64,000 bases of DNA from Oceanicola sp. (GTDB lineage: Bacteria > Pseudomonadota > Alphaproteobacteria > Rhodobacterales > Rhodobacteraceae): contig CP051231.1 in the NCBI GenBank assembly GCA_017792405.1, positions 192,626 through 256,625 of the forward strand, given 5' to 3'. Position numbers and translations under genes: made by a program. Under the pieces are notes generated by a model. It was not told the DNA's origin, did not search any database, and saw nothing but the letters and a program-made list of their open reading frames with translations. This document shows, in pieces, positions 31,858-62,199 of the stretch. How positions within the stretch are numbered: the first letter of the stretch is position 1; the number at the start of each line of letters is the position of its first letter.

Positions 31858-31961
31858 GCGTTAACCCTGCGAACGGGCCGATGCACAACTGATGCACATC
31901 CCATGCACATTCCATGCATACGCGAATGTGGCCCCGGCCCGGAGGTTAACGCGGCGCGCGG
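31858..31961. repeat. Intergenic element copy 1: four ATGCA(C/T)A units at 11-bp period inside GCGTTAACC/GGTTAACGC inverted repeats
   Basis: Units at 31881, 31892, 31903 and 31914; 9-bp inverted repeat at 31858-31866 and 31944-31952; core is 36/40 identical to 62132-62171. Confidence 0.85.
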
Positions 31962-32015
31962 GGCCTGGGCGCGATTGCGCTTGCGGGACGCGCGGATGCG
32001 GCTAGCCTCCGGCGC

Positions 32016-32987
32016 ATGGAACATATCGAGTTTGCCTATTGTCTGAACGGCCCTGAGGCGGGCCAGCGGATTGACCATGAAGACCACATCGTCGCCCGGC
32101 TCAGGGCCGATGAGCTGGCTTGGGTCCATCTGGTTGCCGACCACCCCGAGACCGACCCTTGGATGGAAGAGGTGCTCGACTTCGTGGAGGCGCCGACCCG
32201 CGCCGCGCTCACCGCCAAATCGACCCGCCCGCGCAGCTCGGTGCAGGAGGACGGGCTGGTGGTGATCCTCCGGGGCGTCAACCTGAACCCCGGCGAGGAG
32301 GTCGAAGACATGGTCTCGCTCCGGGTGTTCCTGAACCCGGCCCGGATCATCACCCTCTCGCGGCGGCGGTTGAAGTCGCTGACCGAGATGCAGGAGGCGG
32401 TGGAGGCGGGCGAGGGGCCGCAGAGCGTGGGCGGCTTTCTGACCGGCGTGGTCGAGCGCATGGGCGGGCGGATCGACGAGGTGCTCTTTGAACTGGCCGA
32501 GCGCGTGGACGTTCTGGAGGATGCAGTGATTGCCAGCCCCGACCCGGCACAGCGGAGCCAAGTGGTGGACGAGCGGCAGGAGGTGATCGACCTGCGCCGC
32601 TATCTCGGCCCGCAACGCGATGCGATCGGCCAGCTTGCCAGCGGCGGCCATCCGATGCTCACCAAGCAGGACAGGCGACGGCTGGCGGAGGCCCACGACA
32701 GGCTGGTGCGCGGTGTCGAAGAGCTGGACGCCATGCGCGACCGGCTGATCGTGCTGAAGGACGAGATCGACTCCGCGGTGCAGGACAAGCTGAACCGCAA
32801 CCTCTACCTGCTGTCGATTCTCAGCGCGATCTTCCTGCCGCTTGGCTTTTTGACCGGGCTGATGGGGATCAACCTTGGTGGCATGCCGGGGGCCGAGAGC
32901 CCTTGGGCCTTCTGGGCGTTCACCGGCGGGCTGGTGGTGGTGGGCATCCTTCAGGTCTGGGTGCTGCGGCGGCTGAGGTGGATTTGA
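32016..32987 (+). CDS. zntB: CorA-family transporter, ZntB type
   Basis: TRPR, ILRGVNLN, LRRYLGPQRDA and GLMGINLGGMPG (GIN motif) with two C-terminal TM helices. Confidence 0.85.
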   Translation: MEHIEFAYCLNGPEAGQRIDHEDHIVARLRADELAWVHLVADHPETDPWMEEVLDFVEAPTRAALTAKSTRPRSSVQEDGLVVILRGVNLNPGEEVEDMVSLRVFLNPARIITLSRRRLKSLTEMQEAVEAGEGPQSVGGFLTGVVERMGGRIDEVLFELAERVDVLEDAVIASPDPAQRSQVVDERQEVIDLRRYLGPQRDAIGQLASGGHPMLTKQDRRRLAEAHDRLVRGVEELDAMRDRLIVLKDEIDSAVQDKLNRNLYLLSILSAIFLPLGFLTGLMGINLGGMPGAESPWAFWAFTGGLVVVGILQVWVLRRLRWI

Positions 32988-32988
32988 G

Positions 32989-33015
32989 GGATGGCGGGCA
33001 GATTGCCCACCCTAT
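32989..33015. repeat. REP-like hairpin (GTAG type), copy 1
   Basis: GGATGGCGGGCAGATTGCCCACCCTAT, 23/27 identical to 63971-63997. Confidence 0.7.
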
Positions 33016-33049
33016 TGGCAGAGCGACCGGCACATGAAACATTTGCCTC

Positions 33050-33078
33050 TTGCCAACCGGCAGCGCCTCTCTTATCCA
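33050..33078 (+). promoter_or_regulatory. Sigma70-type promoter of tRNA-Trp
   Basis: TTGCCA-N17-TATCCA followed by a GC-rich discriminator. Confidence 0.55.
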
Positions 33079-33091
33079 TCGGCCCGGCCTT

Positions 33092-33167
33092 AGGGGTATA
33101 GCTCAGTTGGTAGAGCGACGGTCTCCAAAACCGTAGGTCGCGGGTTCAAGCCCTGCTGCCCCTGCCA
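33092..33167 (+). tRNA. tRNA-Trp (CCA)
   Basis: 76 nt; acceptor stem AGGGGTA/TGCCCCT, D loop AGTTGGTAGAGC, anticodon loop CTCCAAA, T loop GGTTCAAGCC and encoded CCA end. Confidence 0.97.
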
Positions 33168-33274
33168 GGCCCTTCCAGATACGACCTTTTGCGCCGCAGC
33201 GTAGCGATGGACTTGGGCTTGCCCCTCCGGTAACCAAGGCCGGACGAATTTATGTTGCGCGGAGGATGAGCCCG

Positions 33275-34921
33275 ATGGCCGAGATCGAACGGGAATCGAT
33301 GGACTACGATGTGGTGATCGTGGGGGCCGGGCCTGCCGGGCTTTCGGCGGCGATCCGGCTCAAGCAATTGGATGCCGATCTCGACGTTGTGGTGCTGGAG
33401 AAGGGCTCGGAAGTGGGCGCGCATATTCTCTCCGGCGCCGTGCTGGACCCTTGCGGGCTCGATGCGCTGATTCCGGACTGGAAAGAGAAGGGCGCGCCGC
33501 TCAACACGCCGGTCACCAAGGACAATTTCTACATCCTCGGGGAAGAGGGCAAGCTGCGGGTGCCGAACTTCCCGATGCCGCCGCTGATGAACAACCACGG
33601 CAACTACATCGTTTCGATGGGCAACGTTTGCCGCTGGATGGCGGAGCAGGCCGAAGAGCTGGGCGTCGAGGTGTTCCCCGGAATGGCCTGCTCGGAGCTG
33701 ATCTACGAGGGCGACCGGGTGAAGGGCGTGGTGGCCGGGGAGTTCGGCAAGAAGCCCGATGGCACGCCGGGCGACGGCTATGAGCCGGGCATGGTGCTGA
33801 ACGGCAAATACGTGTTCCTGAGTGAAGGCGTACGCGGCTCGCTGGCCAAGGAAGTGATCGGCAAATACGGGCTGTCTGACGGGCATGAGCCGCAGAAGTT
33901 TGGCCTTGGCATGAAGGAGATCTGGGAGATCGACCCGGCCAAGCACCGCGAGGGCACCGTGACCCATACGATGGGCTGGCCGCTGGGGGGCAACGCGGGT
34001 GGCGGCTCTTTCATCTATCACCTTGAGAACAATCAGGTTTACGTGGGCTTCGTGGTTCACCTGAACTACAAGAACCCGCATCTCTTCCCCTACATGGAGT
34101 TCCAGCGGTTCAAGCATCATCCGATGGTGGCGGAGCTGCTCGAGGGCGGTAAGCGCGTGGCCTATGGCGCGCGGGCGATTTCTGAGGGCGGATACCAGTC
34201 GATGCCCAAGATGGTCGCGCCCGGCGTGGCGCTGCTGGGCTGCTCGGTGGGCATGGTCAACGTGCCGCGGATCAAGGGGAACCATAACGCGATGCTCTCC
34301 GGCAAGGCCGCCGCAGAGGCCGCCTTTGAGGCGATCAAGGCGGGTCGCGAGGGGGATGAGCTGAGCGCCTACGAGGATGAGGTGCGTGGCGGCGCGATTG
34401 GCAAAGACCTCAAGAAGGTGCGCAACGTGAAGCCGATGTGGAGCAAGTGGGGGCTGTGGCCGTCGCTCGGGCTCGGCGGGCTTGATATGTGGACCAACAA
34501 CCTCTTCGGGTTCAGCCTGTTCGGCACGCTCAAGCACGGCAACAACGACGCGGATGCCACCGGCCTTGCCGCCGATTACCCGGCCATCGACTACCCCAAG
34601 CCGGACGGCAAGCTGAGCTTTGATCGGCTGACCAACGTGTCTTTCTCGATGACCAACCACGAAGAAAGCCAGCCCTGCCACCTGACGCTTAAAGACCCCA
34701 GCGTTCCGATCCAGTTCACCCTGCCGAAATATGCGGAACCGGCGCAGCGCTACTGCCCGGCGGGGGTGTATGAGGTGGTGGAGAAGGACGGCACGCCGGA
34801 GTTTGTCATTAACTTCCAGAACTGCGTGCACTGCAAGACCTGTGACATCAAGGATCCGCCGCAGAACATCCACTGGACGGTGCCGCAGGGCGGCGACGGG
34901 CCGAACTACCCGAATATGTGA
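33275..34921 (+). CDS. Electron transfer flavoprotein-ubiquinone oxidoreductase
   Basis: VGAGPAGLSAA, GAHILSGA and C-terminal CPAGVYE...NCVHCKTCDIKDP 4Fe-4S motif. Start 33275 fits the GGAGG spacing (alternative 33266). Confidence 0.96.
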   Translation: MAEIERESMDYDVVIVGAGPAGLSAAIRLKQLDADLDVVVLEKGSEVGAHILSGAVLDPCGLDALIPDWKEKGAPLNTPVTKDNFYILGEEGKLRVPNFPMPPLMNNHGNYIVSMGNVCRWMAEQAEELGVEVFPGMACSELIYEGDRVKGVVAGEFGKKPDGTPGDGYEPGMVLNGKYVFLSEGVRGSLAKEVIGKYGLSDGHEPQKFGLGMKEIWEIDPAKHREGTVTHTMGWPLGGNAGGGSFIYHLENNQVYVGFVVHLNYKNPHLFPYMEFQRFKHHPMVAELLEGGKRVAYGARAISEGGYQSMPKMVAPGVALLGCSVGMVNVPRIKGNHNAMLSGKAAAEAAFEAIKAGREGDELSAYEDEVRGGAIGKDLKKVRNVKPMWSKWGLWPSLGLGGLDMWTNNLFGFSLFGTLKHGNNDADATGLAADYPAIDYPKPDGKLSFDRLTNVSFSMTNHEESQPCHLTLKDPSVPIQFTLPKYAEPAQRYCPAGVYEVVEKDGTPEFVINFQNCVHCKTCDIKDPPQNIHWTVPQGGDGPNYPNM

Positions 34922-34931
34922 GGCGGCGCCG

Positions 34932-35345
34932 GTGGCCGAGGCGGTCGCGGCCTTCGTCGAAGAGTGGTTTCGCGGGTGCGGCGCAGTCGATCCGGATGAT
35001 ATCTTCGGCTCGACCGACTGGGAAGGCGATGACGCCGACGAGTTTATCGACGGCTTCTCCGAGCGGTTTGGCGTCGATTTGGGCGGGTTCGTTGACGTGT
35101 TCCATTACGACCCGGACGAGCCGCCGATGGGGCGCTTCAGGTTACTTGGGCCGGACGGACAGAAGCTGGAGCGCATCCCCCTAACGCTCGCGATGCTGGA
35201 GGCGGCGGCGCGGGATGGGCGCTGGGCCTATCCCTATCCGCCGCATGAGGTGAAGACGAGCCGGGTGCTCGGCGTCGCTATCTGGGGGCTCTTCATCGTC
35301 ATGGCCTGCTTGGCGGTGATCGAGCTGGGGCGCCTCATGCTCTGA
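34932..35345 (+). CDS. DUF1493-like small acidic membrane-anchored protein
   Basis: GAGG then GTG at 34932; GDDADEFIDGFSERFGVDLGGF motif and a C-terminal TM helix. Confidence 0.6.
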   Translation: MAEAVAAFVEEWFRGCGAVDPDDIFGSTDWEGDDADEFIDGFSERFGVDLGGFVDVFHYDPDEPPMGRFRLLGPDGQKLERIPLTLAMLEAAARDGRWAYPYPPHEVKTSRVLGVAIWGLFIVMACLAVIELGRLML

Positions 35346-35470
35346 ACTCCGCGTCACGATGGCGCGAGATTCCGCGTGACAAGGCCTGTCGCGCGGCGGG
35401 ATCGTATTGTTTTGGTAAGCGCGGAGGACTACGCTGCGCGCAACCCGAAGAACAGAGGTCAAAGAGCCCC

Positions 35471-37189
35471 GTGATGATCCCCTCCCTGCTTCGTTCGGCT
35501 GCCGCGCTTGCGCTGGCCGTGAGCACTGCCCTTCCCGCCGCTGCACAGCAGGCCGACCGGGGGCTTGCAGGCTCCTACCTCGCCGCCCGCGTGGCGAGCT
35601 TCAACAACGATTTCCGCGCTGCCGCCGACTATTACACCCGCGCCCTCGTGCGGGACCGGGACAATGCGCTCTTGATGGAAAACGCCATCTTGGCCTTTGC
35701 CGGGCTGGCCGATTTCAACGCTGCCGTGCCGATTGCGCGGCAGATGGTCGACACCGTCGGCGAGAGCCAGATCGCGCGGCTGGTGCTGATGAGCGATCAG
35801 CTGAGCCGGCAGCAATTCCAAGAGGTGCTGGACGGGCTGGCCGAGGGCCAGACGGTGGGGCCGCTGGTGGACGGGCTGGTGCGGGCGTGGTCCGAGCTGG
35901 CGCTGGGCAACATGGACAATGCGGTGGAGAGCTTTGATGCCGCGGCCGATGACACCGGCCTGAAGGCCTTTGGCCTCTACCACAAGGCGCTGGCCTTTGC
36001 CGTGGCCGGAGATTTCGAGGCCTCCGACGAGATCTTCTCGGGCCGGGAGGCCGGGCCGCTGCGGCTGACCCGCCGGGGCGTGATTGCCCATGTGCAGGTG
36101 CTCAGCCAGCTGGGCCGCAATGCCGATGCCATCGAGCTGATGGAAAAGGCCTTTACCCGCGATCTGGACCCGGAGCTTGCCGCGATCCGCGATCAGCTTG
36201 AGGCCGACGAGACCCTTGCGTTCGACGTGATCCGCTCGGCGGATGACGGGCTGGCCGAGGTCTTCCTTTCGGTGGCCGGGGCGCTGAACGGCGAGACCAG
36301 CGACAGCTACACGCTGCTCTATTCGCGCAGCTCCGAATACCTGCGCCCGGATGATAACACCGAGGCACTGCTGCTCTCTGCCCAGTTGCTCGACCAGATG
36401 GAGCAATATGTGCTGGCCGTGCGCACCTATGACCGGGTGCAACGGAGCGACCCGGCCTTCCACGCCGCCGAGATGGGCCGCGCCGAGGCGCTGCGCAAGG
36501 ATGACAAGGTGGAGGCCGCGACCGAGGTGCTGAGCCAGCTCGCCAAGGCCCGCCCCGACATTCTGGGCGTGCATATCGCGCTGGGCGACGTGCTGCGCGG
36601 GCAGGAGAAGTGGAAGGAGAGCGAGGAGGCCTATGACAAGGCAATCGCGCTCTTCGAGGAGGATCTGGAGACTCATTGGATCGTCTACTACGCGCGCGGC
36701 ATCACCCGTGAGCGGCTGAAGACGTGGGATCTGGCAGAGACCGACTTCCGCAAGGCGCTGGAGCTTCGGCCCAACCAGCCGCAAGTGCTGAACTACCTCG
36801 GTTACTCCTACGTAGAGATGGGCGAGAACCTCGACGAGGCGCTCGACATGATCGAGCGCGCGGTGGCCGAGCGGCCTGACAGCGGGCATATCACCGACAG
36901 CCTCGGCTGGGTGCTCTACCGCCTTGGTCGCTACGAGGAGGCCGTGAGCCACATGGAGCGGGCGACCGAGCTGCTGCCGGTGGACCCGATCGTGAACGAC
37001 CATCTGGGCGATGTGTACTGGGCCGTGGGCCGCCAGCTCGAGGCGCAGTTCCAGTGGAAGCGGGCGCTTTCCTTCGACCCCGAAGAGGAAGACGCCGACC
37101 GCATCCGCCGCAAGCTGGAAAAGGGTCTCGATGCGGTGCTCTCGGAAGAGGGCGCGGAGCCGCTTGCGGTGGTCAATGACGAAGGTTGA
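35471..37189 (+). CDS. Exported TPR-repeat protein
   Basis: Signal peptide and TPRs (VLNYLGYS, DSLGWVLY, DHLGDVYW); usual position upstream of ispE. Confidence 0.9.
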   Translation: MMIPSLLRSAAALALAVSTALPAAAQQADRGLAGSYLAARVASFNNDFRAAADYYTRALVRDRDNALLMENAILAFAGLADFNAAVPIARQMVDTVGESQIARLVLMSDQLSRQQFQEVLDGLAEGQTVGPLVDGLVRAWSELALGNMDNAVESFDAAADDTGLKAFGLYHKALAFAVAGDFEASDEIFSGREAGPLRLTRRGVIAHVQVLSQLGRNADAIELMEKAFTRDLDPELAAIRDQLEADETLAFDVIRSADDGLAEVFLSVAGALNGETSDSYTLLYSRSSEYLRPDDNTEALLLSAQLLDQMEQYVLAVRTYDRVQRSDPAFHAAEMGRAEALRKDDKVEAATEVLSQLAKARPDILGVHIALGDVLRGQEKWKESEEAYDKAIALFEEDLETHWIVYYARGITRERLKTWDLAETDFRKALELRPNQPQVLNYLGYSYVEMGENLDEALDMIERAVAERPDSGHITDSLGWVLYRLGRYEEAVSHMERATELLPVDPIVNDHLGDVYWAVGRQLEAQFQWKRALSFDPEEEDADRIRRKLEKGLDAVLSEEGAEPLAVVNDEG

Positions 37190-38033
37190 GGCCTTCGCCC
37201 CGGCCAAGATCAACCTCGCCCTCCACGTTACAGGCCGCCGCAGCGACGGGTATCACCTGCTCGACAGCCTCGTGTGCTTTGCCAATGTGGGCGACCACCT
37301 GACACTGACCGATGCGCCGGGGATGAGTCTTGGCGCCTCCGGCCCGTTCGGCGCCAGCGTGCCGCCCGGGCCGAGCAACCTTGTGCTGCGTGCCGCCGAA
37401 CTGATGGAGGCCGAGGCCGAGCGGCTCGGCGTGCCGGTGGGCGGCGTTTCCATCCAGCTGGAAAAGCACCTGCCGATCTCGTCCGGGTTGGGCGGCGGCT
37501 CTGCCGATGCGGCGGCGGCGCTCCGGGCGCTCTCTGACCTTTGGGGCGTGCCGGTGCCGGGCGTTCACCGGCTGGCCAAGGAGCTGGGCGCGGATGTGCC
37601 GGTGTGCCTCGATCCGGGCGCGTCTTGGCGGATGCGCGGGATCGGCGAGGAGCTGACCCGGCTGGAGCGAATGCCGCAGCTGAACCTGCTGCTGGTCAAT
37701 CCGCGCGTGCCGGTCTCGACGGCGGCTGTGTTTGGCCGGATGGAGCAGCGCGACAATGCCCCCATGCCGGAGCCGCCCGAGGCCCCCAGCCGCCGCGAGC
37801 TGGTGGAATGGCTGGCTTGGCAACGCAACGACCTAGAGGCCCCGGCCTGCTCGCTCGCGCCGGAGATCGGCGAGGTGCTGGAGGAACTGCGGGCGCAGGA
37901 GGGCGCGATGCTGGCACGGATGTCAGGCTCGGGCGCCTCATGCTTTGCCATCTTCGAAGACAATGAGGCCCGCGATCGGGCGGCCGGTGTGCTGCGCGAG
38001 GACTGGCCGGAGTGGTGGGTGGCCGAAGGCTGA
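37176..38033 (+). CDS. ispE: 4-diphosphocytidyl-2-C-methyl-D-erythritol kinase
   Basis: APAKINL, GLGGGSAD, LGADVP and RMSGSG. Start set at MTKVEAF. Confidence 0.93.
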   Translation: MTKVEAFAPAKINLALHVTGRRSDGYHLLDSLVCFANVGDHLTLTDAPGMSLGASGPFGASVPPGPSNLVLRAAELMEAEAERLGVPVGGVSIQLEKHLPISSGLGGGSADAAAALRALSDLWGVPVPGVHRLAKELGADVPVCLDPGASWRMRGIGEELTRLERMPQLNLLLVNPRVPVSTAAVFGRMEQRDNAPMPEPPEAPSRRELVEWLAWQRNDLEAPACSLAPEIGEVLEELRAQEGAMLARMSGSGASCFAIFEDNEARDRAAGVLREDWPEWWVAEG

Positions 38034-38049
38034 GCGCAGCCGTTCGGGC

Positions 38050-39060
38050 TCAACGGATGCGGGCCACAACGTAATCGGCAAGGTCGATCAGCATGTCGCG
38101 CATCTCGCTGCCGGGCAGGGGGGCGAGGGCGGATTTGGCGCGGTCGGCCCAGGCGGTGGCCTCGGCGCGGGTGGCCTCCAGCGTGCCGTGCTTGGCGAGC
38201 AAGCCGAGCGCCGTTTCCAGATCACCCTCTTCCTGACGGCCCCGCTCGATGCAGCGCTTCCAGAAGTCACGCTCTTCCGCATCGGCCAGCGCCACGGCCT
38301 TGATCACCGGCAGGGTCAGCTTGCGCTCGCGGAAATCGTCACCCACGTTCTTGCCCGTCGCCCCGGCGTCGCCCGCGTAATCGAGGTAGTCGTCGACGAT
38401 TTGGAAGGCGATGCCGAGCGCGTCGCCATAGTCGAAGAGGGCGCGGGTCACATCATCGGAAGCCCCGGCGATGACCCCGCCTGCCTCGGTGGCCGCCGAG
38501 AAGAGCGCCGCCGTCTTGCCGCGAATGACCTTGAGATAGATGCTCTCGTCGGTGCGCAGATCCTGCGCCGCTGAGAGTTGCAGAACTTCGCCCTCGGCAA
38601 TTGTGGCCGCCGCGTTGGAGAGGATCGAGAGCACACGCAGGTTGCCGGGCTCGACCATCAGCTGGAAAGCGCGGGCGAAGAGGTAATCGCCCACCAGCAC
38701 CGAACTTTTGTTGTCCCAGAGCAGGTTGGCGGTGGGGCGGCCCCGGCGCTGGGCGCTTTCATCGACCACGTCGTCATGCAGCAGCGTGGCGGTATGGATG
38801 AACTCGACGGTTGCGGCGAGATGCACGTGGTAGGGGCCAGCGTAGTTGCACAGCCGCGCGGCGGCGAGCACCAGCATGGGCCGCAGCCGCTTGCCGCCTG
38901 CATCGATCAGATGGGCCGAAACCTCGGGGATGCGGGGCGCGTGCTCGGAGGCCATTCGCTCGGCGATCAGGGCGTTCACCGCGTCCATCTCGCCCGAGAG
39001 CGCATCGGCCAGCCGCTCGTGTGGTTTGGTCTCTGCCGTCTTCTGAGCTGCGTTCAGCAC
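38050..39060 (-). CDS. ispB: Long-chain polyprenyl (octa/decaprenyl) diphosphate synthase
   Basis: GGKRLRP, LHDDVVD, GKTA and IVDDYLD. Start is uncertain (GTG 39060 or 39066). Confidence 0.9.
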   Translation of the reverse strand: MLNAAQKTAETKPHERLADALSGEMDAVNALIAERMASEHAPRIPEVSAHLIDAGGKRLRPMLVLAAARLCNYAGPYHVHLAATVEFIHTATLLHDDVVDESAQRRGRPTANLLWDNKSSVLVGDYLFARAFQLMVEPGNLRVLSILSNAAATIAEGEVLQLSAAQDLRTDESIYLKVIRGKTAALFSAATEAGGVIAGASDDVTRALFDYGDALGIAFQIVDDYLDYAGDAGATGKNVGDDFRERKLTLPVIKAVALADAEERDFWKRCIERGRQEEGDLETALGLLAKHGTLEATRAEATAWADRAKSALAPLPGSEMRDMLIDLADYVVARIR

Positions 39061-39118
39061 GTTCACCCTCTCGTCACCCCGCTCGACAGCTCGTGCTGCT
39101 GCGCTTAAGTCTTTGTCC

Positions 39119-42332: not shown

Positions 42333-42494
42333 ATGCTTCCCTACTACGCCACATCCGCCCATGAAGCCGCCGTGAGCCATGCCCGCCAGTTGCGCGCCGA
42401 AGCGTTCAGCAACGCATTGCGCTGGCTGTTCGGGAAAGGAAAAGGGGCCGCGGATCGCTCCACGGCCCCCGAAAGCTGCGGCTGCGCGGCTTAA
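42333..42494 (+). CDS. Small protein (53 aa) divergent from the LysR gene
   Basis: GGAG RBS; MLPYYATSAHEAAVSHARQLRAEAFSNALRWLFG...CGCAA. The ARxLRAEA motif is typical of small alphaproteobacterial proteins facing GcvA-like regulators. Confidence 0.65.
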   Translation: MLPYYATSAHEAAVSHARQLRAEAFSNALRWLFGKGKGAADRSTAPESCGCAA

Positions 42495-43213
42495 ACGAAG
42501 AACTGCGCGCCGTTGGCCGAGATGGTCGAGCCGTTGATGAAGCCCGAGTCCTCGGAGGCGAGGAAGCTCACGCAGCGGGCGATTTCCTCGGGCGTGCCGA
42601 GACGGCCCGCGGGGATGCCGGCGATGATCTTCTCGCGCACCGACTCGTCGATCGCCATGACCATCTCGGTGCCGATGTAGCCGGGGCAGATCGCGTTGGC
42701 GGTGATCCCGGCGCGGGCGCCTTCCTGCGCGAGGCTTTTCACAATGCCGAGGTCACCGGCCTTGGTGGCGGCGTAGTTGACCTGACCGGCCTGGCCCTTC
42801 TGGCCATTGATCGATGAAATCACGATTACCCGGCCGAACTTGCGCTCGCGCATGCCGGGCCAGCAGGGGTGGACGGTGTTGAACACGCCGGTGAGGTTGG
42901 TGCCAATCACCTCGTTCCACTGCTCCGGGGTCATCCGGTGGAACATGGCGTCACGGGTAATGCCGGCATTGGCAACCACGGTATCGATCGGGCCGATTTC
43001 TTCGGTGATCTTGTCGATCCCGGCCTTGGAGGCGGCGTAATCGGCCACGTTCCACTTGTAGGTCTTGATGCCGGTCTCGGCGGTGAAGGCGGCGGCCTTC
43101 TCGTCATTGCCGGCATAGGTGGCGGCCACTTCGTAGCCCTCGGACTTGAGCTGCTTGGAAATGGCTTCCCCGATCCCTCGGGAGCCGCCGGTGACGAGTG
43201 CAACGCGGGTCAT
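42491..43213 (-). CDS. phaB: Acetoacetyl-CoA reductase
   Basis: VTGGSRGIG, NAGITRD, SSINGQKGQAGQVNYAATK; directly downstream of phaA. Confidence 0.95.
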   Translation of the reverse strand: MTRVALVTGGSRGIGEAISKQLKSEGYEVAATYAGNDEKAAAFTAETGIKTYKWNVADYAASKAGIDKITEEIGPIDTVVANAGITRDAMFHRMTPEQWNEVIGTNLTGVFNTVHPCWPGMRERKFGRVIVISSINGQKGQAGQVNYAATKAGDLGIVKSLAQEGARAGITANAICPGYIGTEMVMAIDESVREKIIAGIPAGRLGTPEEIARCVSFLASEDSGFINGSTISANGAQFFV

Positions 43214-53725: not shown

Positions 53726-53774
53726 GGAGCGCCGTCGGAGGTGAGAGTTCTCGGCACGAAAATGCAGCCGGACG

Positions 53775-54847: not shown

Positions 54848-55525
54848 GTGATCGAGCTGGAAAATGTGGCGTACAGCTATGGCGGCGGGGAGTTGTTGAG
54901 CGACATATCGCTCCGGCTCGCGCCCGGGTCATTCCACTTTCTGACCGGGCCATCGGGCGCGGGGAAGACCACGTTTTTGAAGCTTTGCTACCTCGAACTG
55001 GCGCCCACATCGGGCCGGGTTCAGCTCTTCGACAAGCCGGCCACCGGGTTCAGCCGGAACGAGGTGGCGCGCGCCCGTCGGCGGATTGGCGTGGTGCATC
55101 AGGATTGCCATTTTCTCGACCATCTGCCGCTGGCCGAGAACATCGCGCTGCCGCTCACGGTGGCGGGGCGGAATGTGGCGGAAGAGAAGGGCAATATCGA
55201 AGAATTGCTGCGCTGGGTCGGGCTGGAAAAGCACACCGATGCGCTGCCGCCCTCGCTCTCGGGTGGTGAGCGGCAGCGGGCGGCGCTGGCGCGGGCGGTT
55301 GTGATGTCTCCCGATATCGTGCTGGCCGACGAGCCGACGGGCAACGTGGATTGGGAGATGGGGCAGCGGTTGCTGCAGTTGCTCGTGGAGCTGAACAAGA
55401 TGGGCAAGACCATCGTGATCGCCACCCATGATCTCAACCTGATCCGCACCGCCAAGAGCAAGGTTGCGGCGCGGGTGCTGCGGATTGCCAAGCGGCGGCT
55501 CCAGCTTGCGGGGGCCGACCTGTGA
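54848..55525 (+). CDS. ftsE: Cell division ATP-binding protein FtsE
   Basis: GPSGAGKTT, LSGGERQR, LADEPTGNVD and ATHD; upstream of ftsX. Confidence 0.92.
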   Translation: MIELENVAYSYGGGELLSDISLRLAPGSFHFLTGPSGAGKTTFLKLCYLELAPTSGRVQLFDKPATGFSRNEVARARRRIGVVHQDCHFLDHLPLAENIALPLTVAGRNVAEEKGNIEELLRWVGLEKHTDALPPSLSGGERQRAALARAVVMSPDIVLADEPTGNVDWEMGQRLLQLLVELNKMGKTIVIATHDLNLIRTAKSKVAARVLRIAKRRLQLAGADL

Positions 55526-56466
55526 GCGGCATCGGTGGCAAGGTGGCGGGCGTGCTCTCGGCCCTGAAGGTGCGGACGGGCAAGGCGCTGGCGTTGCTTC
55601 AGGGCGACGGGCAGGCCGACCGGGTGGTGCCGCCCACGGGGTTTACCGCAAACCTGACGCTGTTCACCGCCGGGGCGATGGCCTTTCTGGCGGTGTTCGC
55701 CCTTGCACTGTCGCTCGCCACGGGCCGGGTGGCCAGCCGATGGAGCGAGGAACTGGCGCGCTCGGCGACGCTGCGAATTTCGGCCCCGATGGAGCAACGC
55801 GAGGCGCAGGCAGCCAAGGCGCTTGAGGTGCTGGAGAGCACGCCCGGCGTCGCCTCCGCCCGCAGGCTGAGCGACGACGAGCAGCGCGACCTTCTGGCGC
55901 CGTGGCTGGGCGTTGACCTGCCGATGGAAGACCTGCCGGTGCCGGTGCTGATCGAGGTGGTCGAGGGCGAAGGGCTGGACGTGGCCGGGCTGAAGGCGCG
56001 GCTGGCGGGCGAGGTGCCGGGCGCTGTCTATGACGACCATTCGCGGTGGCGGGAGCCGCTGATCCGCGCGGCCTCGCGCCTGCGGCTCTTGGGCTGGGTG
56101 GCGCTCGGGCTCATCGCGGCCTCGACGGCGGCGATGATTACGCTGGCCGCGGGCTCTGCGCTGGCGGCCAATGCACGGGTGATCGCCACCCTGCGGCTGG
56201 TGGGCGCAACCGATACCTACATTGCCCGCGCTTTCGTGCGGCGCTTTACCCAAAGGGCGCTTCTGGGCGCGGCGGTGGGCACCTCGCTGGCCATGCTGGC
56301 GCTGGCGCTTCTGCCGCGGGCGGAGACGACCGGGGGCTTTTTGACCGGGCTTGGCTTTACCGGCGCGGGCTGGCTGCTGCCGCTCATCGTGCCGATGCTC
56401 GCGGCGATCACCGCCTTCTGGGCCACGCGGGCTTCGGCCTTTCGGACATTGAGGCAAGTCACATGA
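55522..56466 (+). CDS. ftsX: Cell division permease FtsX
   Basis: Four TM helices, LRLVGATDTYIA; GTGA overlap with ftsE. Confidence 0.88.
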   Translation: MSGIGGKVAGVLSALKVRTGKALALLQGDGQADRVVPPTGFTANLTLFTAGAMAFLAVFALALSLATGRVASRWSEELARSATLRISAPMEQREAQAAKALEVLESTPGVASARRLSDDEQRDLLAPWLGVDLPMEDLPVPVLIEVVEGEGLDVAGLKARLAGEVPGAVYDDHSRWREPLIRAASRLRLLGWVALGLIAASTAAMITLAAGSALAANARVIATLRLVGATDTYIARAFVRRFTQRALLGAAVGTSLAMLALALLPRAETTGGFLTGLGFTGAGWLLPLIVPMLAAITAFWATRASAFRTLRQVT

Positions 56467-57218
56467 GAGACGCGGTGCAATGGGTCCGCAGCCTGATCTT
56501 TGTCGGGCAGATGTATCTGGCGATGGCGGTGCTGGCGGTGTTCTTCACCCCGTGGATGCTGGTGGACCGGCGCGGGGCCTTTGCGGGGGTGCATACCTAT
56601 TGCCGCTGGGTGCGATGGTCGGCTTCTTGGATGGTGGGGCTGAAGACGGAAGTGCGCGGCGAGGTGCCCTCCGGCGAGGTGCTGGTCGCCTCCAAGCACC
56701 AGAGCTTCCTTGATATCATCATGCTGGTCTCGGTGCTGCCGCGCCCGAAGTTCATCATGAAACGCGAGCTGATGTTCGCGCCGATCCTCGGGCAATACGC
56801 GCTGCGCATCGGTTGTGTGCCGGTGGACCGGGGCAAGCGGGCGCAGGCTATTCAGAAGATGGTTGCCGATGTGGCCAGCGGGGCGCAGCGGCCCGGACAG
56901 TTGATCATCTATCCGCAGGGCACCCGCACGGCGCCCGGCTCGGACCTGCCCTACAAGGTGGGCAGCGCGGTGCTCTACCGCGAGCTTGGGCAAACCTGCG
57001 TGCCGGCGGCGACCAACGTGGGCGTGTTCTGGCCGCGCAAGGGGATCATGCGCAAGCCGGGCGTGGCGGTTGTGGAGTTTCTGCCGCCGATTCCGCCGGG
57101 GCTGACGCCGCAGGAGTTCTCTGAACGGCTGCGCAGCGTGGTCGAAGAACGCTCGGATGCGTTGATGCTGGAGGCCGGGTTCGATGCACCGACGGCAAGG
57201 GCGAGGGCAAAGGGATGA
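56463..57218 (+). CDS. 1-acyl-sn-glycerol-3-phosphate acyltransferase (PlsC-like)
   Basis: SKHQSFLD, VDRG, YPQGTR; ATGA overlap. Confidence 0.88.
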   Translation: MRDAVQWVRSLIFVGQMYLAMAVLAVFFTPWMLVDRRGAFAGVHTYCRWVRWSASWMVGLKTEVRGEVPSGEVLVASKHQSFLDIIMLVSVLPRPKFIMKRELMFAPILGQYALRIGCVPVDRGKRAQAIQKMVADVASGAQRPGQLIIYPQGTRTAPGSDLPYKVGSAVLYRELGQTCVPAATNVGVFWPRKGIMRKPGVAVVEFLPPIPPGLTPQEFSERLRSVVEERSDALMLEAGFDAPTARARAKG

Positions 57219-57817
57219 GCGAGATCCGCGATGTGGCCGAGCTCGAGGCGCTTTACGGCGCGCCGGGGCAGCGCTCGCTCGACAAGGTGGCGCGGCGGAT
57301 CACCCCGCTCTACCGCCAATGGATCGCCGCCTCGCGGTTTTGCGTGCTCTCGACGGTGGGGCCGGAAGGCACCGATGGCTCGCCGCGCGGAGATGACGGC
57401 CCAGTGGTGCTGGAGCTGGACGAGACTACGCTCGCGCTACCCGACTGGATGGGCAACAACCGCATGGATTCGCTGCGCAATATCGTGCGCGACGGACGGG
57501 TGAGCCTGATGTTCATGGTGCCCGGATCAACCAATGTGGTGCGGGTGAACGGCACGGCGGTGGTTTCGGTTGACGACGCGCTGCGGGGCCGGTTCGAGCG
57601 GGCCGGCAAGCTGCCGCGCTCGGTGGTCGTGGTGACGCTGGGCGAGATCTACTTTCAATGCGCCAAGGCGATCCTGCGCTCGGGCCTGTGGCGCGGCGAG
57701 GATGAAAGCGGCAAGGTGCCCACGGCGGGCGAGCTGGTGCGCGAGGCCGATGCGGGCTTCGACGCCGAAAGCTACGACGACGGCTATGCGGAATATGCCA
57801 AGCCGCGGATGTGGTGA
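57215..57817 (+). CDS. Pyridoxamine 5'-phosphate oxidase-like FMN-binding protein
   Basis: DGSPRGD, PDWMGNNRMDSLRNI and YFQCAKA. Confidence 0.87.
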   Translation: MSEIRDVAELEALYGAPGQRSLDKVARRITPLYRQWIAASRFCVLSTVGPEGTDGSPRGDDGPVVLELDETTLALPDWMGNNRMDSLRNIVRDGRVSLMFMVPGSTNVVRVNGTAVVSVDDALRGRFERAGKLPRSVVVVTLGEIYFQCAKAILRSGLWRGEDESGKVPTAGELVREADAGFDAESYDDGYAEYAKPRMW

Positions 57818-57842
57818 GGCGCAGGGTGGGTAGGGCCGGAGG

Positions 57843-58805
57843 TTAGGCCGCCAACCCTTTGCTGCCCATCTTCAGAAACTTCTCGCGGCGGTCCTTGCGG
57901 AGCTGCTTGCGGTTCTTGCCCTCAAGATCCTTCAGCAGGCTCTGCACCGCGCCGCCGACGCGCTTGATCACCTCGGCCCGGTGACGCTGCGCGCCGCCCA
58001 GAGGCTCCTTGATGATGTGATCGCAGATGCCGAGCTGCTTGAGATCCTGTGCGGTGAGCCGCAGGGCCTCGGCTGCCTCGCGCATCTTCTCGGCATCCTT
58101 CCACAGGATCGAGGCGCAGCCCTCGGGGGAGATCACCGAGTAGATCGAATGTTCGAGCATTGCCAAGCGGTTGGAGGAGGCAAAGGCGACCGCGCCGCCG
58201 GAGCCGCCCTCGCCGATCACCACCGATACCATCGGCACGCCAAGGTTGAGGCACTTCTCGGTCGAGCGGGCGATGGCCTCGGACTGGCCGCGCTCTTCGG
58301 CGCCCTTGCCGGGATAGGCGCCGGGGGTGTCGACCAGCGTGACCACGGGCAGATCGAAGCGGTCGGCGAGGTCCATCAGGCGGATCGCCTTGCGGTAGCC
58401 CTCGGGGCGGGCCATGCCGAAGTTACGCTCGATGCGGGTTTTGGTGTCATGCCCCTTCTCGTGGCCGATCACCACCACCGGGCGCCCTTCGAGCCGCGCC
58501 ATGCCGCCCATGACGGCGTGGTCATCGGCAAAGTTCCTGTCGCCGGCGAGCGGCGTGTATTCGGTGAAGAGCGCCTCGATATAATCCTTGCAGTGCGGAC
58601 GGTCGGGGTGCCGCGCGACCTGGCATTTGCGCCAGGCGGAGAGGTCGCCATAGAGCTCGGCGAGCAGGTCGCTGGCCTTCTTGTCGAGCCCGCGGGCCTC
58701 GTCCTCGACCTTCATCTCGGGGTTCGAGCGTGCCATCGCACGCAGCTCTTCGGCCTTGCCCTCGATCTCGGCAAGCGGCTTCTCGAATTCCAGGTAGTTG
58801 GTCAT
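57843..58805 (-). CDS. accA: Acetyl-CoA carboxylase carboxyltransferase alpha
   Basis: [34 protein letters not shown] and [14 protein letters not shown]. Confidence 0.97.
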
Positions 58806-58924
58806 TTATCCTCGCAGAGTGGCTGCACCCCCTCATATGGCGCAGCGTGGCCGGGCTTGCAACAAAGCAAGATTTGTCAGCTTGGGCCATGTTAGGCAGG
58901 CCGGGCAAAAGGCGAGGCAGGGCA

Positions 58925-59761
58925 ATGGATTACAAAAAACGGATGGAGCGGGTGGAGCGCCACATCCTGACCCATCTGGACGAAGACCTGAGCCTCGATG
59001 CGCTCGCCGATGTGGCGGCCTTCTCGCGGTTTCACTTTCATCGGGTCTATCTGAAGATGATGGGAGAGAGCGTGGCCGAGACGGTGCGGCGCACTCGGCT
59101 GAACCGCGCGGCGGTGATGCTGGCGACCACCCGGCAGGAGATGGCGCAGGTGGCCGAGTTGTGCGGCTACCCGAATACGCAGAGCTTTGCGCGGGCCTAC
59201 CGCGCGGCTTTTGGCGAGGCACCCTCGCAGACACGTCGCAGCCGGGTGGCCCCCGTGCTGCTGCTGCCCGAAAACCAAGGAGAGATACCCATGTATGATG
59301 TCGACATCCGGCAGGAGCCGGGCTTTCACGGTGCAGCCCTTGCCCATTCGGGCCCCTATCAGGAAATCGGGCAGGCTTATGAAGGGCTTATCCAAAAGTG
59401 CCTTGCGGCCGGGCTGGGCGGGAAGCTGGGGCTGCTGGTGGCCTACTTCTGGGATGATCCGACGGCGGTGCCGGCCGATCAGCTGCGCTCCCATGCCGGG
59501 GTGATCCTGCCTGAGGGCACGCCGGTGCCGGAGGGCTTGGACCCGGTGGAGGTGAAGCCCTGCGAGGTGCTGGTGGTGACCCACAAGGGGCCATACTCCG
59601 GGCTGCCGGAGGCTTGGGGCTTCATGTATGGCAAGGCGCTGGCCGAGAGCGGGCGGGCGCCTTCTGAGGAGGAGCCGCCGTTTGAACGCTACCTGAACAA
59701 CGCGATGGACACCGCGCCGGAGGAGCTGCTGACCGAGGTGGTCATGCCCTTGGCGCGGTGA
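58925..59761 (+). CDS. AraC-family regulator with a C-terminal GyrI-like effector domain
   Basis: LADVAAFSRFHFHR, GYPNTQSF.RAYR..FG..P, then H.GPY and FERYLN. Confidence 0.9.
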   Translation: MDYKKRMERVERHILTHLDEDLSLDALADVAAFSRFHFHRVYLKMMGESVAETVRRTRLNRAAVMLATTRQEMAQVAELCGYPNTQSFARAYRAAFGEAPSQTRRSRVAPVLLLPENQGEIPMYDVDIRQEPGFHGAALAHSGPYQEIGQAYEGLIQKCLAAGLGGKLGLLVAYFWDDPTAVPADQLRSHAGVILPEGTPVPEGLDPVEVKPCEVLVVTHKGPYSGLPEAWGFMYGKALAESGRAPSEEEPPFERYLNNAMDTAPEELLTEVVMPLAR

Positions 59762-59785
59762 GGTATGTGATGAGAGGTCAGTGGG

Positions 59786-60742
59786 TTACGAGGCGATCAG
59801 CTCGGATTGCTTCACGATCACCTCGGCCTGTTTGATCGAGGCGATATCCACGAGGCGGCCCTTGTAAACGGTCGCGCCCGCGCCCTCGGCCTTGGCCTTT
59901 TCCATCGCGGCGAGGATCTCGCGCGCCTCGGCCACGGCCTCTTCGGAGGGGGTGAAGACCTCGTTGGAGAGGGCCACCTGCTTGGGGTGGATCGCCCATT
60001 TGCCGACCATCCCGAGGGTGGCCGAGCGGCGGGCCTGGGCGCGGAAGCCCTCGTCGTCGGAGAAGTCACCGAAGGGGCCATCAACCGGCAGCACGCCGTG
60101 GGTGCGGCAGGCGGCGACGATGGCGGTTTGCGCCCAGTGCCACGGGTCGGAGTAGTGCCGGGTATCCCCTTGGAGCATATAGTAATTTTCCTGCGTTCCG
60201 CCGATGCCGGTGGTCTGCATGCCCATGCTGGCGGCAAAGTCGGCGGCGCCGAGGCTCATCGCCTCCATCCGGGGTGAGGCGGCGGCGATCTCTTCGACAT
60301 GGGCGATGCCGGCGGCGCTCTCGATGATGACCTCGAAACCGATGCGCTTGCTGCGGCCCTTGGCGGCCTCGACGGCGGTGACCAGAGCGTCGACGGCGTA
60401 GATATCGCCCGCGCAGCCGACCTTGGGGATCATGATCTGGTCGAGCCTTTCTGATGCGTTTTCAAGCAGGTCGACCACGTCGCGATACCAATAGGGGGTA
60501 TCGAGCCCGTTGATACGCACCGAAAGGCGCTTGTTGCCCCAGTCGATATCGCCGATGGCTTGGATCACGTTGCGGCGGGCCTCTGCCTTGTCATCGGGGG
60601 CGACCGAATCTTCGAGGTCGATGTTGATCACGTCCGCCGCAGAGCCTGCCATCTTCTCGAAGATCGCCGGGCGGGAGCCGGGGCCGAAGAGCTGACAGCG
60701 GTTGGGGCGGGCAGGCGGCGTGGGCTGGAGGCGGAAAGACAT
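59786..60742 (-). CDS. mcl: L-malyl-CoA/beta-methylmalyl-CoA lyase
   Basis: MSFRLQP..PARPNRCQLFGPGS, DLEDSVAP, VRING and GKWAIHP; matches the Rhodobacter Mcl1 type. Confidence 0.92.
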   Translation of the reverse strand: MSFRLQPTPPARPNRCQLFGPGSRPAIFEKMAGSAADVINIDLEDSVAPDDKAEARRNVIQAIGDIDWGNKRLSVRINGLDTPYWYRDVVDLLENASERLDQIMIPKVGCAGDIYAVDALVTAVEAAKGRSKRIGFEVIIESAAGIAHVEEIAAASPRMEAMSLGAADFAASMGMQTTGIGGTQENYYMLQGDTRHYSDPWHWAQTAIVAACRTHGVLPVDGPFGDFSDDEGFRAQARRSATLGMVGKWAIHPKQVALSNEVFTPSEEAVAEAREILAAMEKAKAEGAGATVYKGRLVDIASIKQAEVIVKQSELIAS

Positions 60743-61010
60743 CGGCAGGGCTCCGGGTAAGGATATTTCGTTTCGTTCGGCTTGGTTGGTAGATTATTGC
60801 GCCGCTACCTGCAAGCCCGATTGTGCCGCAGTGCAGCGATTCCGGATCTTGCACATCATTTTGCCCAAGGCTTCGCCGCAGCGCGAGATATTTGCGCTGC
60901 ATTGCGGCGCGGGGCGAGAATCTTGCGCGCAATCCTTAACCGCCCCTCAAGAATGCCACAAATTCCTTAACGGTGCACGGTAGCATCGCGCCAAACCAAG
61001 GAGCTGCCCC

Positions 61011-62018
61011 ATGATCGAGACCCCCTATCTTCTTTTCCTCGGAGACGCCCCGGATGCGCTGGCCGCGAAGGTGGCTCAAGGCATCAAGGATTGGCGGCCG
61101 GACAATGCGGTGGGCCAGCTGAGGCTCGACGGCTGCAAGGCCGACATGAAGCTCACCGACATGACCATCGAAGAAGCCGTCGCGGCGGGCGCAAAGACGC
61201 TGGTGATCGGCGTGGCCAACCGGGGCGGCACCATCAGCCAGGCGTGGATGGACGTGCTGGAAAAGGCGCTGATTGCCGGGATGGACTTGGCCTCGGGCCT
61301 GCACAACCTGCTCAAGCATGAGCCGACCCTCGTGGCGCTGGCCGAGGAGCATGGCCGCCAACTGCATGACGTGCGCATCCCCAGCGTGAAATACCCCATC
61401 GCCAACGGCGAGCCGCGCAAGGGCATGCGCCTGCTGGCGGTGGGCACCGATTGCTCGGTGGGCAAGATGTATACCACCATCGCGATGGACGCCGAGGCCA
61501 AGGCACGGGGAATGAAGTCGAATTTCCGGGCGACGGGGCAGACGGGCATCCTGATCACCGGCAACGGCGTGCCGCTCGACGCGGTGATCGCCGACTTCAT
61601 GGCGGGCTCCATCGAGTGGCTGACCCCCGACAACGACCCCGACCATTGGGACATGATCGAGGGGCAGGGCAGCCTGTTTCACCCCAGCTACAGCGGCGTG
61701 ACGCTGGCGCTGGTGCATGGCGGCGCGCCCGATGCTCTGGTGCTCTGCCACGAGCCGACGCGGCCCCATATGCGCGGCCTGCCGGGCTATGAGCTGCCGA
61801 CGCTGGAGGCGCTTCGCGACGTGTCGCTGACGATGGCGCGGGTGGTGAACCCCGGCTGCGAGGTGATCGGCATTTCGATCAACACCCAGCACATGAGCGA
61901 GGCGGAGGCCGAGGCCTATCTGGCAGAGGTCGAGGCGCAGATGGGCCTGCCCACGGTGGACCCGTTCCGGCAGGGTGCGGGCCGTCTGGTGGATGCCCTT
62001 CCGGCGCCGAAAGCCTGA
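61011..62018 (+). CDS. dgcN: DUF1611-family D-glutamate N-acetyltransferase
   Basis: PYLLFLGD, ASGLH, GTDCSVGKM, ATGQTG and IEGQGSLFHPSYSGV; upstream of dgcA. Confidence 0.85.
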   Translation: MIETPYLLFLGDAPDALAAKVAQGIKDWRPDNAVGQLRLDGCKADMKLTDMTIEEAVAAGAKTLVIGVANRGGTISQAWMDVLEKALIAGMDLASGLHNLLKHEPTLVALAEEHGRQLHDVRIPSVKYPIANGEPRKGMRLLAVGTDCSVGKMYTTIAMDAEAKARGMKSNFRATGQTGILITGNGVPLDAVIADFMAGSIEWLTPDNDPDHWDMIEGQGSLFHPSYSGVTLALVHGGAPDALVLCHEPTRPHMRGLPGYELPTLEALRDVSLTMARVVNPGCEVIGISINTQHMSEAEAEAYLAEVEAQMGLPTVDPFRQGAGRLVDALPAPKA

Positions 62019-62035
62019 GCCGGCCACGGGCGCGG

Positions 62036-62056
62036 GGGTGGGCAACACGTCCACCC
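62036..62056. repeat. REP-related hairpin after dgcN
   Basis: GGGTGGGC-AACAC-GTCCACCC; same stem as the REP copies but no CTAC/GTAG end. Confidence 0.45.
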
Positions 62057-62071
62057 GGCGCCCTTGGCAAA

Positions 62072-62199
62072 CCTTAACGCGGCGTGCGGTGACGGTGGGG
62101 TAACGGCTTGGAGGTGTGCGGAGATCCGCACATACACAAGTGATGCACATCCCATGCACATCCGATGCATATCGCACTCGCAGAAAACCTGCGTTAACC
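62072..62199. repeat. Intergenic element copy 2: four AT(G/A)CA(C/T)A units at 11-bp period with TTAAC modules
   Basis: Units at 62132, 62143, 62154 and 62165; CCTTAACGC at 62072-62080 and GCGTTAACC at 62191-62199. Confidence 0.85.

Follow-up and report, generated by a model that had tools for sequence, protein, structure and literature searches.

Short arrays of the heptamer ATGCACA, repeated head-to-tail with an 11-bp period, form a conserved multi-copy family in the chromosomes of marine Rhodobacteraceae, and the orientation of these arrays follows replication. Two of them lie in the stretch of DNA analysed here, 64,000 nucleotides of Oceanicola sp. (GenBank assembly GCA_017792405.1, contig CP051231.1, positions 192,626 to 256,625 of the forward strand; hereafter the window). 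Selection acts on the heptamers and on their 11-bp phase, and the placement of the arrays is independent of gene context. The replication-linked orientation is a new finding, absent from an earlier sequence-only reading of the window, and this polarity suggests an undescribed chromosome-level function rather than control of neighbouring genes.

Two arrays in the window

Copy 1 (31881..31920, + strand; ATGCACAACTGATGCACATCCCATGCACATTCCATGCATA) consists of four units, ATGCACA-actg-ATGCACA-tccc-ATGCACA-ttcc-ATGCATA, and copy 2 (62132..62171, + strand; ATACACAAGTGATGCACATCCCATGCACATCCGATGCATA) of four units with a degenerate first one, ATACACA-agtg-ATGCACA-tccc-ATGCACA-tccg-ATGCATA. Both have an 11-bp period, and they are identical in 36 of 40 positions; re-reading the letters returned exactly the coordinates, sequences, identity and shared strand that the sequence-only reading had given. 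Two-unit and three-unit patterns match the window at these two places only (0.00 matches expected from dinucleotide-preserving shuffles of the window), and Tandem Repeats Finder returns both as period-11 arrays with the common consensus unit ATGCACATCCC. The single heptamer ATGCAYA is not over-represented in the window (10 seen vs. 8.3 expected), and seven of the ten lie within the arrays. Both copies are intergenic and end 95 bp (copy 1) and 57 bp (copy 2) before the start of a CorA/ZntB-type gene and of dgcA, respectively, as had been claimed; the lower G+C content also attributed to them is borne out for copy 1 (45% by letter count vs. ~66% for the window). When the intergenic regions of the two copies are aligned, they are similar over the array only, and a local duplication is therefore ruled out. 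The reservation that these might be the only two copies, products of a recent local duplication, is thus removed by this array-only similarity and by the wider family described below.

A family of phased arrays

A scan for the pattern ATGCAYA-N4-ATGCAYA-N4-ATGCAYA, with one genome per species, yielded at least 116 loci, compared with ~2 matches expected by chance for the whole collection (our own estimate, assuming uniform base composition). Labels such as L001 or L002 denote individual loci. About 90 of these at least 116 listed loci belong to Rhodobacteraceae (mostly) or related high-G+C alphaproteobacteria and share one architecture; the remaining listed matches are unrelated perfect 11-bp iterons from other phyla. 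Among the matches listed, the genera with arrays are Harenicola, Vannielia, Thalassovita, Actibacterium, Antarctobacter, Halocynthiibacter, Cognatishimia, Thalassobius, Marivivens, Amylibacter, Pelagimonas, Oceanicola, Amaricoccus and Thermohalobaculum, joined by several metagenome-assembled genomes (MAGs). Harenicola maris harbors at least six arrays plus one in coding sequence, one Rhodobacterales MAG at least seven, and Vannielia litorea and Thalassovita taeanensis at least five each. The sequence-only reading had predicted many copies per genome, and what is found is several per genome in a family that crosses genera. It had also known no named family for the element; there is no Rfam match at the gathering threshold or at E <= 1, and we found no prior description of the array family in the literature.

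The family consensus is [NTRCACA]-N4-ATGCACA-N4-ATGCACA-N4-ATGCATA. A degenerate NTRCACA comes first, followed by two or three exact ATGCACA units, and the last unit is often ATGCATA; a variant ends in ...ATGCACA-acgc-ATATGC. Four units are present in 61 of the 101 high-G+C arrays, with family members ranging from three to six, and the period is exactly 11 bp in all arrays. Across genera, conservation covers ~50 bp only, within which the heptamers are kept and the spacers and the number of units vary.

We note some further loci. In the isolate assembly of Cognatishimia sp. F0-27, a scaffold of 356 bp (L043) holds little beyond one array and its flanks, which suggests that the region, being repeated or polymorphic, breaks assemblies. 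L056 carries two arrays 3.2 kb apart on the same strand, the second of them slightly degenerate. L103 likewise has a second, slightly degenerate array (~5285-5313), on the opposite strand and ~1.2 kb upstream of an Hda-like gene. A Verrucomicrobiota MAG contains, at no fewer than three loci (L017, L031 and L081), three to four copies of ATGCACACCGG followed directly by an inverted array of CCGGTGTGCAT...; this is an unrelated dispersed iteron-like element that uses the same heptamer. Two candidate identities from the literature were rejected: the ATGCACA matches among PhaR and PpsR sites in Rhodobacter and Bradyrhizobium are unrelated motifs, and the sole match concerning dif/Xer is a coincidental Frankia dif spacer.

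Orientation relative to replication

For the alphaproteobacterial loci, we asked whether the strand that reads ATGCACA is the G-rich strand of the 8-kb piece. This holds for 69 of 81 loci (p = 7e-11), and for 59 of the 65 with an absolute skew above 0.03; the G-rich strand is taken as the leading one. In the comparison with replication and transcription that the sequence-only reading had proposed, the arrays follow the leading strand and not the flanking genes. Gene orientation does not explain the bias, because the GC skew of the array strand is positive in same-strand genes (+0.067) as well as in opposite-strand genes (+0.057), and an estimator balanced for gene orientation agrees (32 of 41 positive, p = 4e-4; replication term +0.06, coding term +0.014). 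Composition does not explain it either, since the array strand is itself C-rich and isolated ATGCACA heptamers in the same loci are biased oppositely (16 leading vs. 41 lagging). The bias is present in every subclass, with or without flanking GTTAAC sites and at every unit number, and the rule is obeyed at ~85-90%.

The + strand, on which the two window copies are found, is G-rich from one end of the window to the other, and its cumulative skew rises monotonically. The rule is also followed by the five-unit array of L243 and by two arrays embedded in the gene valS, all described below. On Harenicola NODE_2 and Actibacterium contig2, opposite arrays, ~365 kb and ~270 kb apart respectively, flank a skew switch of the origin type, which argues against a strict confinement of the family to the terminus zone.

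Two related identities were considered and rejected. The arrays do not appear to mark the replication origin, oriC: no locus has paired divergent arrays at a skew switch, the array beside hemE lies between convergent genes, and the two arrays of L103 point away from each other with no GC-skew switch between them. Nor do they represent a Chi-like oligomer or one resembling KOPS (FtsK orienting polar sequences), single heptamers being neither enriched nor co-oriented.

Conservation of heptamers and spacers

Information content was measured on 57 anchored four-unit arrays. Apart from the heptamers, only a W that follows each unit, a weak GAAA ~10 bp upstream and a G/C beside the first unit carry information; the flanks are flat. 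Positions 1-7 of the units are 94-100% invariant. The spacers are merely biased (W, c, c, y), and A never precedes the next unit.

Orthologous arrays show the same pattern. Copy 1 has a counterpart in a Vannielia MAG (L002), located 5' of the corA/zntB homologue, in which the heptamers and two GTTAA sites are kept and the remainder of the intergenic region has diverged. Copy 2 has a counterpart in L243: the heptamers are identical in 27 of 28 positions and the spacers in 5 of 12, with four units in the window and five in L243. This pair provides the cleanest conservation test, because L243 was found via DgcA and gene order and not via the motif. Over eight matched pairs the heptamers are 96% and the spacers 60% identical, a contrast that is in part exaggerated, as it was the heptamer pattern that led to most of the partners.

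Arrays inside a coding sequence add a further constraint. Harenicola maris (L001, 2692-2720) and Cognatishimia sp. (L110) each harbor an array of three to four units within valS, antisense to the gene and located in a hypervariable linker; in L001 a GTTAAC lies 18 bp upstream of the array. The encoded peptides differ (GVCITCASDVH vs. AHEMCMDCAYVVH), and the TGTGCAT units stay at an 11-nt period, so the array cannot be a peptide repeat. Of 90 further ValRS linkers from Rhodobacteraceae, one (P0133, ...LCMNCASDV...) bears the peptide signature that an array of this kind would leave. Selection on heptamer and phase is what the protein-binding platform proposed in the sequence-only reading predicts.

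Flanking partner sites

Within 60 bp of the arrays, TTAA is enriched 5.5-fold over other intergenic DNA of the same loci (p = 7e-28), in most cases as part of GTTAAC. Such a flank is found at 34 of 89 arrays (~38%), usually with one site per side. The positions are quantised, with left sites at -18/-20 or -30/-33, sometimes at -51/-61, and right sites at +16..+25, so that the distances to the array are in helical register. The distances within a pair cluster at 80-85 bp, and most others are near 91-92, 102-108 or 120 bp. With pairs phased in this way, the whole complex would cover one face of ~90 bp of DNA. The site (G)TTAAC(C) resembles the alphaproteobacterial CtrA half-site TTAACCAT, which we take as a lead only.

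Both window copies have such a pair. At copy 1, the left GTTAAC (31860..31865) belongs to the position class -18/-20, its TTAA beginning 20 bp before the array, and the right GTTAAC (31945..31950) has a TTAA that begins 25 bp past the array, at a distance of 85 bp from the left one; these are the two sites that are footprint-conserved in L002. At copy 2, the left site is TTAACG (62074..62079), with a TTAA that begins 58 bp before the array. The right site is part of a conserved block directly after the array, TCGCACTCGCAGAAAACCTGCGTTAACC (62172..62199, + strand), which is identical in 27 of 28 positions in L243. Within this block are a degenerate fifth unit, TCGCAG, and, at 62193-62198, the right GTTAAC; the TTAA of the latter follows the array at 22 bp and is 120 bp away from its left counterpart. 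Copy 2 is also adjoined by an inverted repeat, GTGCGGAGATCCGCAC (62116..62131, + strand), which is kept in L243 as GTGCGAAAATCCGCAC; it is a feature of the copy-2 locus and not shared by the array family.

Gene context

According to a crude gene call based on G+C at third codon positions, the genes flanking the arrays are arranged as -/- in 21 cases, +/- in 20, +/+ in 16 and -/+ in 11, the divergent configuration being the rarest. When the immediate neighbours are clustered, 88 of 106 are singletons, and when all open reading frames within 4 kb of the arrays are clustered, no family recurs apart from orthologous neighbourhoods. A Pfam search of 20 promoter-side neighbours returned unrelated functions, including MipZ, RadC, BioY, an M48 peptidase, a major facilitator superfamily transporter, Fmt, a GntR regulator, chorismate mutase, LolA, LeuD and L17. 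Arrays are also found within operons, sense between dgcN and dgcA and antisense between rpoA and rplQ. The latter spacer, part of the ribosomal alpha operon, holds six units in L094 (3138-3199; spacer ~226 bp) and four in L086 (1046-1085). The gene directly after the array tends to be head-on (33 vs. 18, p = 0.049), a weak trend that we do not build on.

In the window, copy 1 lies between a molybdopterin-dependent oxidoreductase gene upstream and the CorA/ZntB-type transporter gene (32016..32987, + strand; Pfam PF01544, E = 1.4e-65), for whose protein a look-up of the exact sequence gave no record. Copy 2 lies between dgcN (DUF1611; 61011..62018, + strand; Pfam PF07755 and PF17396) and dgcA, which encodes an enolase-superfamily racemase (62229..63194, + strand; Pfam PF13378 and PF02746). 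dgcN and dgcA are a linked gene pair, a linkage that had escaped the sequence-only reading, and their order is kept in L242, L243 and L244. Homologues of the latter protein carry the name N-acetyl-D-Glu racemase DgcA. The best named match, 93% identical, comes from a Vannielia MAG, and to judge by this identity the organism of the window is a relative of Vannielia. Neither copy has a sigma-70-like promoter beside it, and no terminator is found at either one except for a terminator-like match on the minus strand (62142-62162) that is built of the repeat units of copy 2. Elsewhere in the window, a tRNA gene (33092-33164, + strand; Rfam, 68.9 bits) lies 1.2 kb 3' of copy 1 with no apparent link to it, and a sub-threshold match to BjrC68, a Bradyrhizobiaceae small RNA, is located at 42435-42500 on the minus strand (30 bits vs. 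a gathering score of 39, E = 9e-4).

Gain, loss and copying

Orthologous arrays occur in different genera, and at some sites the element is old. At the copy-2 site, presence and absence could be followed among relatives, a comparison that the sequence-only reading had called for. The closest relative found, the Vannielia MAG with 93% DgcA identity (L242), has no array in its dgcN-dgcA spacer; this spacer comprises 78 bp (L242:9923-10000; counterpart in the window 62019-62228) and holds a GC-rich hairpin. The more distant L243 (87% DgcA identity) has the orthologous five-unit array with conserved flanks.

Copies within a genome can also be closely related. In two MAGs, paralogous arrays (L018/L035/L115 and L102/L107/L113/L030) have their spacers and flanks in common, and the shared stretch ends exactly at the TTAAC motifs, which indicates that a module of 90-110 bp has been copied within the genome. 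Many arrays contain identical neighbouring spacers (e.g. L003, L049, L060 and L073), and this suggests that the number of units changes by slippage.

A proposed protein platform oriented by replication

These observations best support a platform of proteins bound head-to-tail in helical phase, with a polarity under selection relative to fork movement; we give this reading roughly even odds (about 0.5). As duplex DNA, the array would serve as the docking site of a host protein that recognises its sequence, and three to six protomers of this protein, usually four, would sit head-to-tail on the ATGCACA heptamers. Since the heptamers are one helical turn apart, the protomers would occupy one face of the helix and form a directional structure. 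In about four of ten arrays, the palindromic GTTAAC on each side, set in the same register and with TTAA cores ~81-85 bp apart, probably binds a second, dimeric factor, which would extend the complex to roughly 90 bp. The direction of the complex would be set relative to the movement of the fork, such that ATGCACA is read on the leading, G-rich strand. As part of the same explanation, the arrays would not regulate adjacent genes.

The invariance and phasing of the units suggest that a protein binds the array, and the orientation bias points to a function tied to replication or to the origin-to-terminus axis. Such a function may take several forms. The array may be a polar obstacle kept in its permissive orientation; it may mark direction for machinery that travels with the fork or translocates along DNA; or it may act as a titration site linked to the passing of the fork. 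A more specific version, in which distributed direction-marking complexes, each a dedicated protein bound head-to-tail on the heptamers and often flanked by a GTTAAC-binding dimer, let origin-to-terminus machinery pass and impede or signal to machinery that travels the wrong way, is tentative, and we consider it well below even odds.

Several points weigh against the platform reading. The direction of replication was taken from the GC skew of 8-kb pieces and not from mapped origins, and ~10-20% of the arrays are exceptions to the orientation rule or ambiguous. The rpoA-rplQ array is antisense to an operon that is normally co-directional with replication; judged by skew, the operon in L094 and L086 would occupy the C-rich strand, an unusual place for ribosomal genes. 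Either the locus truly breaks the orientation rule or its skew is an artefact. Arrays within operons that are transcribed also fit poorly with a tight roadblock. No candidate gene for the binding protein recurs beside the arrays among the open reading frames clustered within 4 kb. The scan counts are lower bounds, and copy number, taxonomic range and chromosomal distribution are partly known. Finally, the paralogous modules and the absence of copy 2 from a close relative mean that part of the distribution reflects copying and loss, and the orientation bias could stem from an insertion mechanism instead of from selection.

Comparison with DnaA-box clusters

DnaA is the best named candidate for the binding protein, although an unlikely one, and positions 1-2 of its box do not fit. 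According to this explanation, the arrays would be head-to-tail DnaA sites of low or medium affinity that lie away from oriC and serve to titrate DnaA, or help to inactivate or reactivate it. ATGCACA corresponds to positions 3-9 of the DnaA-box consensus TT(A/T)TNCACA. The low-affinity arrays of E. coli oriC reportedly consist of 9-mers, 2 bp apart and in one orientation, a layout that the arrays match when they are read as head-to-tail 9-mers plus 2 bp with a period of 11 bp. A group of viral contigs (L198, L201, L202, L204, L207, L217, L220, L226, L228, L230 and L237; G+C ~0.45) carries three copies of TTATGCACA at 11 bp, with in-phase canonical TGTGGATAA boxes to the left and right of them, and presumably represents a DnaA-dependent phage origin. 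TTATGCACA has been listed as the consensus DnaA box in T5-like phages, and GTTATGCACAT repeats overlap predicted boxes in the predicted oriC of Yersinia pestis. In a Candidatus Poribacteria genome (L020:2392-2420), AGTTATGCACA occurs three times with an 11-bp period, ~1 kb beyond the Walker A motif of dnaA and with inverted copies nearby; this array presumably lies just 3' of dnaA, and it resembles an oriC. Within the family itself, one array of an Antarctobacter MAG (L114:5256-5296) is located ~200 bp upstream of rpsT in the order rpsT-dnaA-dnaN-recF, and the DnaA of this genome retains the DHTTV recognition motif.

Much speaks against DnaA. At box positions 1-2, where T is expected, the arrays have C in 54% and 52% and T in 19% and 27% of cases, whereas canonical 11-bp arrays have T in 69% and 87%, and both GC-rich contigs in that sample also keep the T. 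A survey of 80 metagenomic dnaA loci (782 kb in total; ~10 of the loci look like Rhodobacterales) found no array within 8 kb of the gene, and the regions upstream of dnaA lack ATGCACA boxes. Viral ATGCAYA arrays (45) are not clearly commoner than those of scrambled controls (12 and 31), whereas ATCCACA arrays number at least 120. Neither the terminal ATGCATA unit nor the GTTAAC partners is a feature of DnaA sites. Clusters of DnaA boxes such as datA and the DnaA-reactivating sequences (DARS) of E. coli, or those of B. subtilis, also occupy several chromosomal places outside oriC; we know of no replication-orientation rule described for them.

A dispersed repeat

A selfish or neutral dispersed repeat, comparable to miniature inverted-repeat transposable elements (MITEs), repetitive extragenic palindromes (REPs), bacterial interspersed mosaic elements (BIMEs) or Correia elements, is similarly improbable. 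It would consist of a TTAAC-bounded module of 90-110 bp, and its orientation bias would result from insertion into a preferred strand, such as the template of the lagging strand. Strand-biased copying is the main rival for the orientation rule, and IS200/IS605-type elements have orientation biases of 80-90%. The sequence-only reading had offered a mobile or REP-associated element as its second option, and part of this idea stands: in two MAGs the paralogous modules extend up to TTAAC, the array of copy 2 is absent from a close relative, and arrays occupy short intergenic regions, often at the 3' ends of genes and also between the genes of an operon. Other expectations fail. Across genera the array alone is conserved and not its flanks, and the 57 aligned arrays show neither terminal inverted repeats nor subterminal hairpins. 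The orientation of the TTAACC half-site differs between copies; 62% of the arrays have no TTAA flank, and where one exists its distance is variable and quantised by helical turns. Orthologous arrays with heptamer-specific constraint are kept across genera, even inside the essential gene valS, copy numbers are low, and no transposase recurs nearby.

The closest known elements of this kind are BIMEs and repetitive IHF-binding palindromic elements (RIPs) of enterobacteria and the Correia elements of Neisseria. They are likewise intergenic modules of ~100 bp in which inverted terminal motifs surround a site for a host protein, and they likewise occur in multiple copies, favour the 3' ends of genes and have paralogues within a genome. 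Unlike them, the arrays lack REP hairpins and long terminal inverted repeats and have phased direct repeats at their centre. They also number tens of copies at most, are conserved in their core without flanks, and have a strong replication-orientation bias.

Operators and RNA

That the arrays are operators for a regulator of the OmpR/PhoB family, possibly with CtrA at TTAAC, and control adjacent promoters such as those of zntB and dgcA, is very unlikely. Pho boxes consist of a 7-bp unit and a 4-bp spacer, usually in four units, TGTGCAT resembles OmpR-family half-sites, and the CtrA site TTAA-N7-TTAA also has an 11-bp period. The arrays have this 7+4 direct-repeat geometry, and both window copies lie upstream of same-strand genes. 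The operator role that the sequence-only reading had implied for zntB and dgcA nevertheless finds no support: the neighbours share no common function, and the arrays have no fixed position or orientation relative to promoters. They are frequent between convergent genes and rarest between divergent ones, occur in coding sequence (valS) and within operons, and are oriented by replication and not by their neighbours; no promoter accompanies the window copies. The arrays thus share with Pho boxes and CtrA sites the 11-bp period, the single helix face and a TTAAC that is like the CtrA half-site, but have no regulon.

An RNA, be it a small RNA, a C-rich site for loading of Rho (rut) or a protein-sponge RNA, can hardly account for the arrays: the sense strand is C-rich and G-poor as in rut sites and the antisense strand carries GGA/GGG between units, but there is no Rfam match at E <= 1 and no promoter, the sole terminator-like match is made of the units of copy 2 themselves, folding is no better than that of shuffled sequences (z-scores -0.5 to -2.2), array orientation is independent of the flanking genes, and the rigid 11-nt phasing without covarying stems points to duplex DNA. 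Metatranscriptome contigs over one Amylibacter array have single-read depth and carry no weight either way, and the runs listed for the organism of the window are metagenome DNA and two of unknown type, with no RNA among them.

Relation to known polar and phased sites

Among known systems, the platform reading recalls Tus-Ter of E. coli and RTP-Ter of B. subtilis, which likewise comprise few to tens of short polar sites per chromosome, oriented by replication and located between or within genes; RTP-Ter binds four protomers, the usual number of array units. In contrast to both, the arrays have an unrelated sequence, consist of direct-repeat heptamers, and appear not to be confined to the terminus. 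Plasmid iterons and the ParR-parC system of R1 (11-bp direct repeats) also use short repeats with a period of 11 bp or a multiple thereof, bound cooperatively on one face. Unlike these, the arrays are dispersed on chromosomes among housekeeping genes, and no adjacent rep or par family recurs. A blastn search of PLSDB gave no plasmid match, the sensitivity of such a search being low for short arrays with variable spacers. KOPS, Chi and architecture-imparting sequences are likewise tied to the leading strand on both replichores. These are, however, single 5-8-mers in hundreds to thousands of copies, whereas here only the phased arrays are oriented.

Implications

For annotation, arrays of this family should not be read as operators of adjacent genes. 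An array is kept even inside an essential gene, valS. Harenicola maris KMM 3653, Vannielia litorea and Thalassovita taeanensis DSM 22007 are cultured marine bearers of the arrays, and the motif is short and easily synthesised. If the binding protein were DnaA or a response regulator, arrays of binding sites oriented by replication would still be a new layout for that protein.

To our knowledge, outside the narrow-range Tus and RTP systems there are no sequence-specific polar sites for replication or chromosome arms that are bound by a protein array. The arrays bear on the question of how most bacteria, including all Alphaproteobacteria, enforce or read the polarity of their replichores. If the more specific, direction-marking version of the platform reading is true, they would represent a third, evolutionarily independent bacterial polar fork barrier or arm-polarity signal, distributed along the replichores and not clustered at the terminus.

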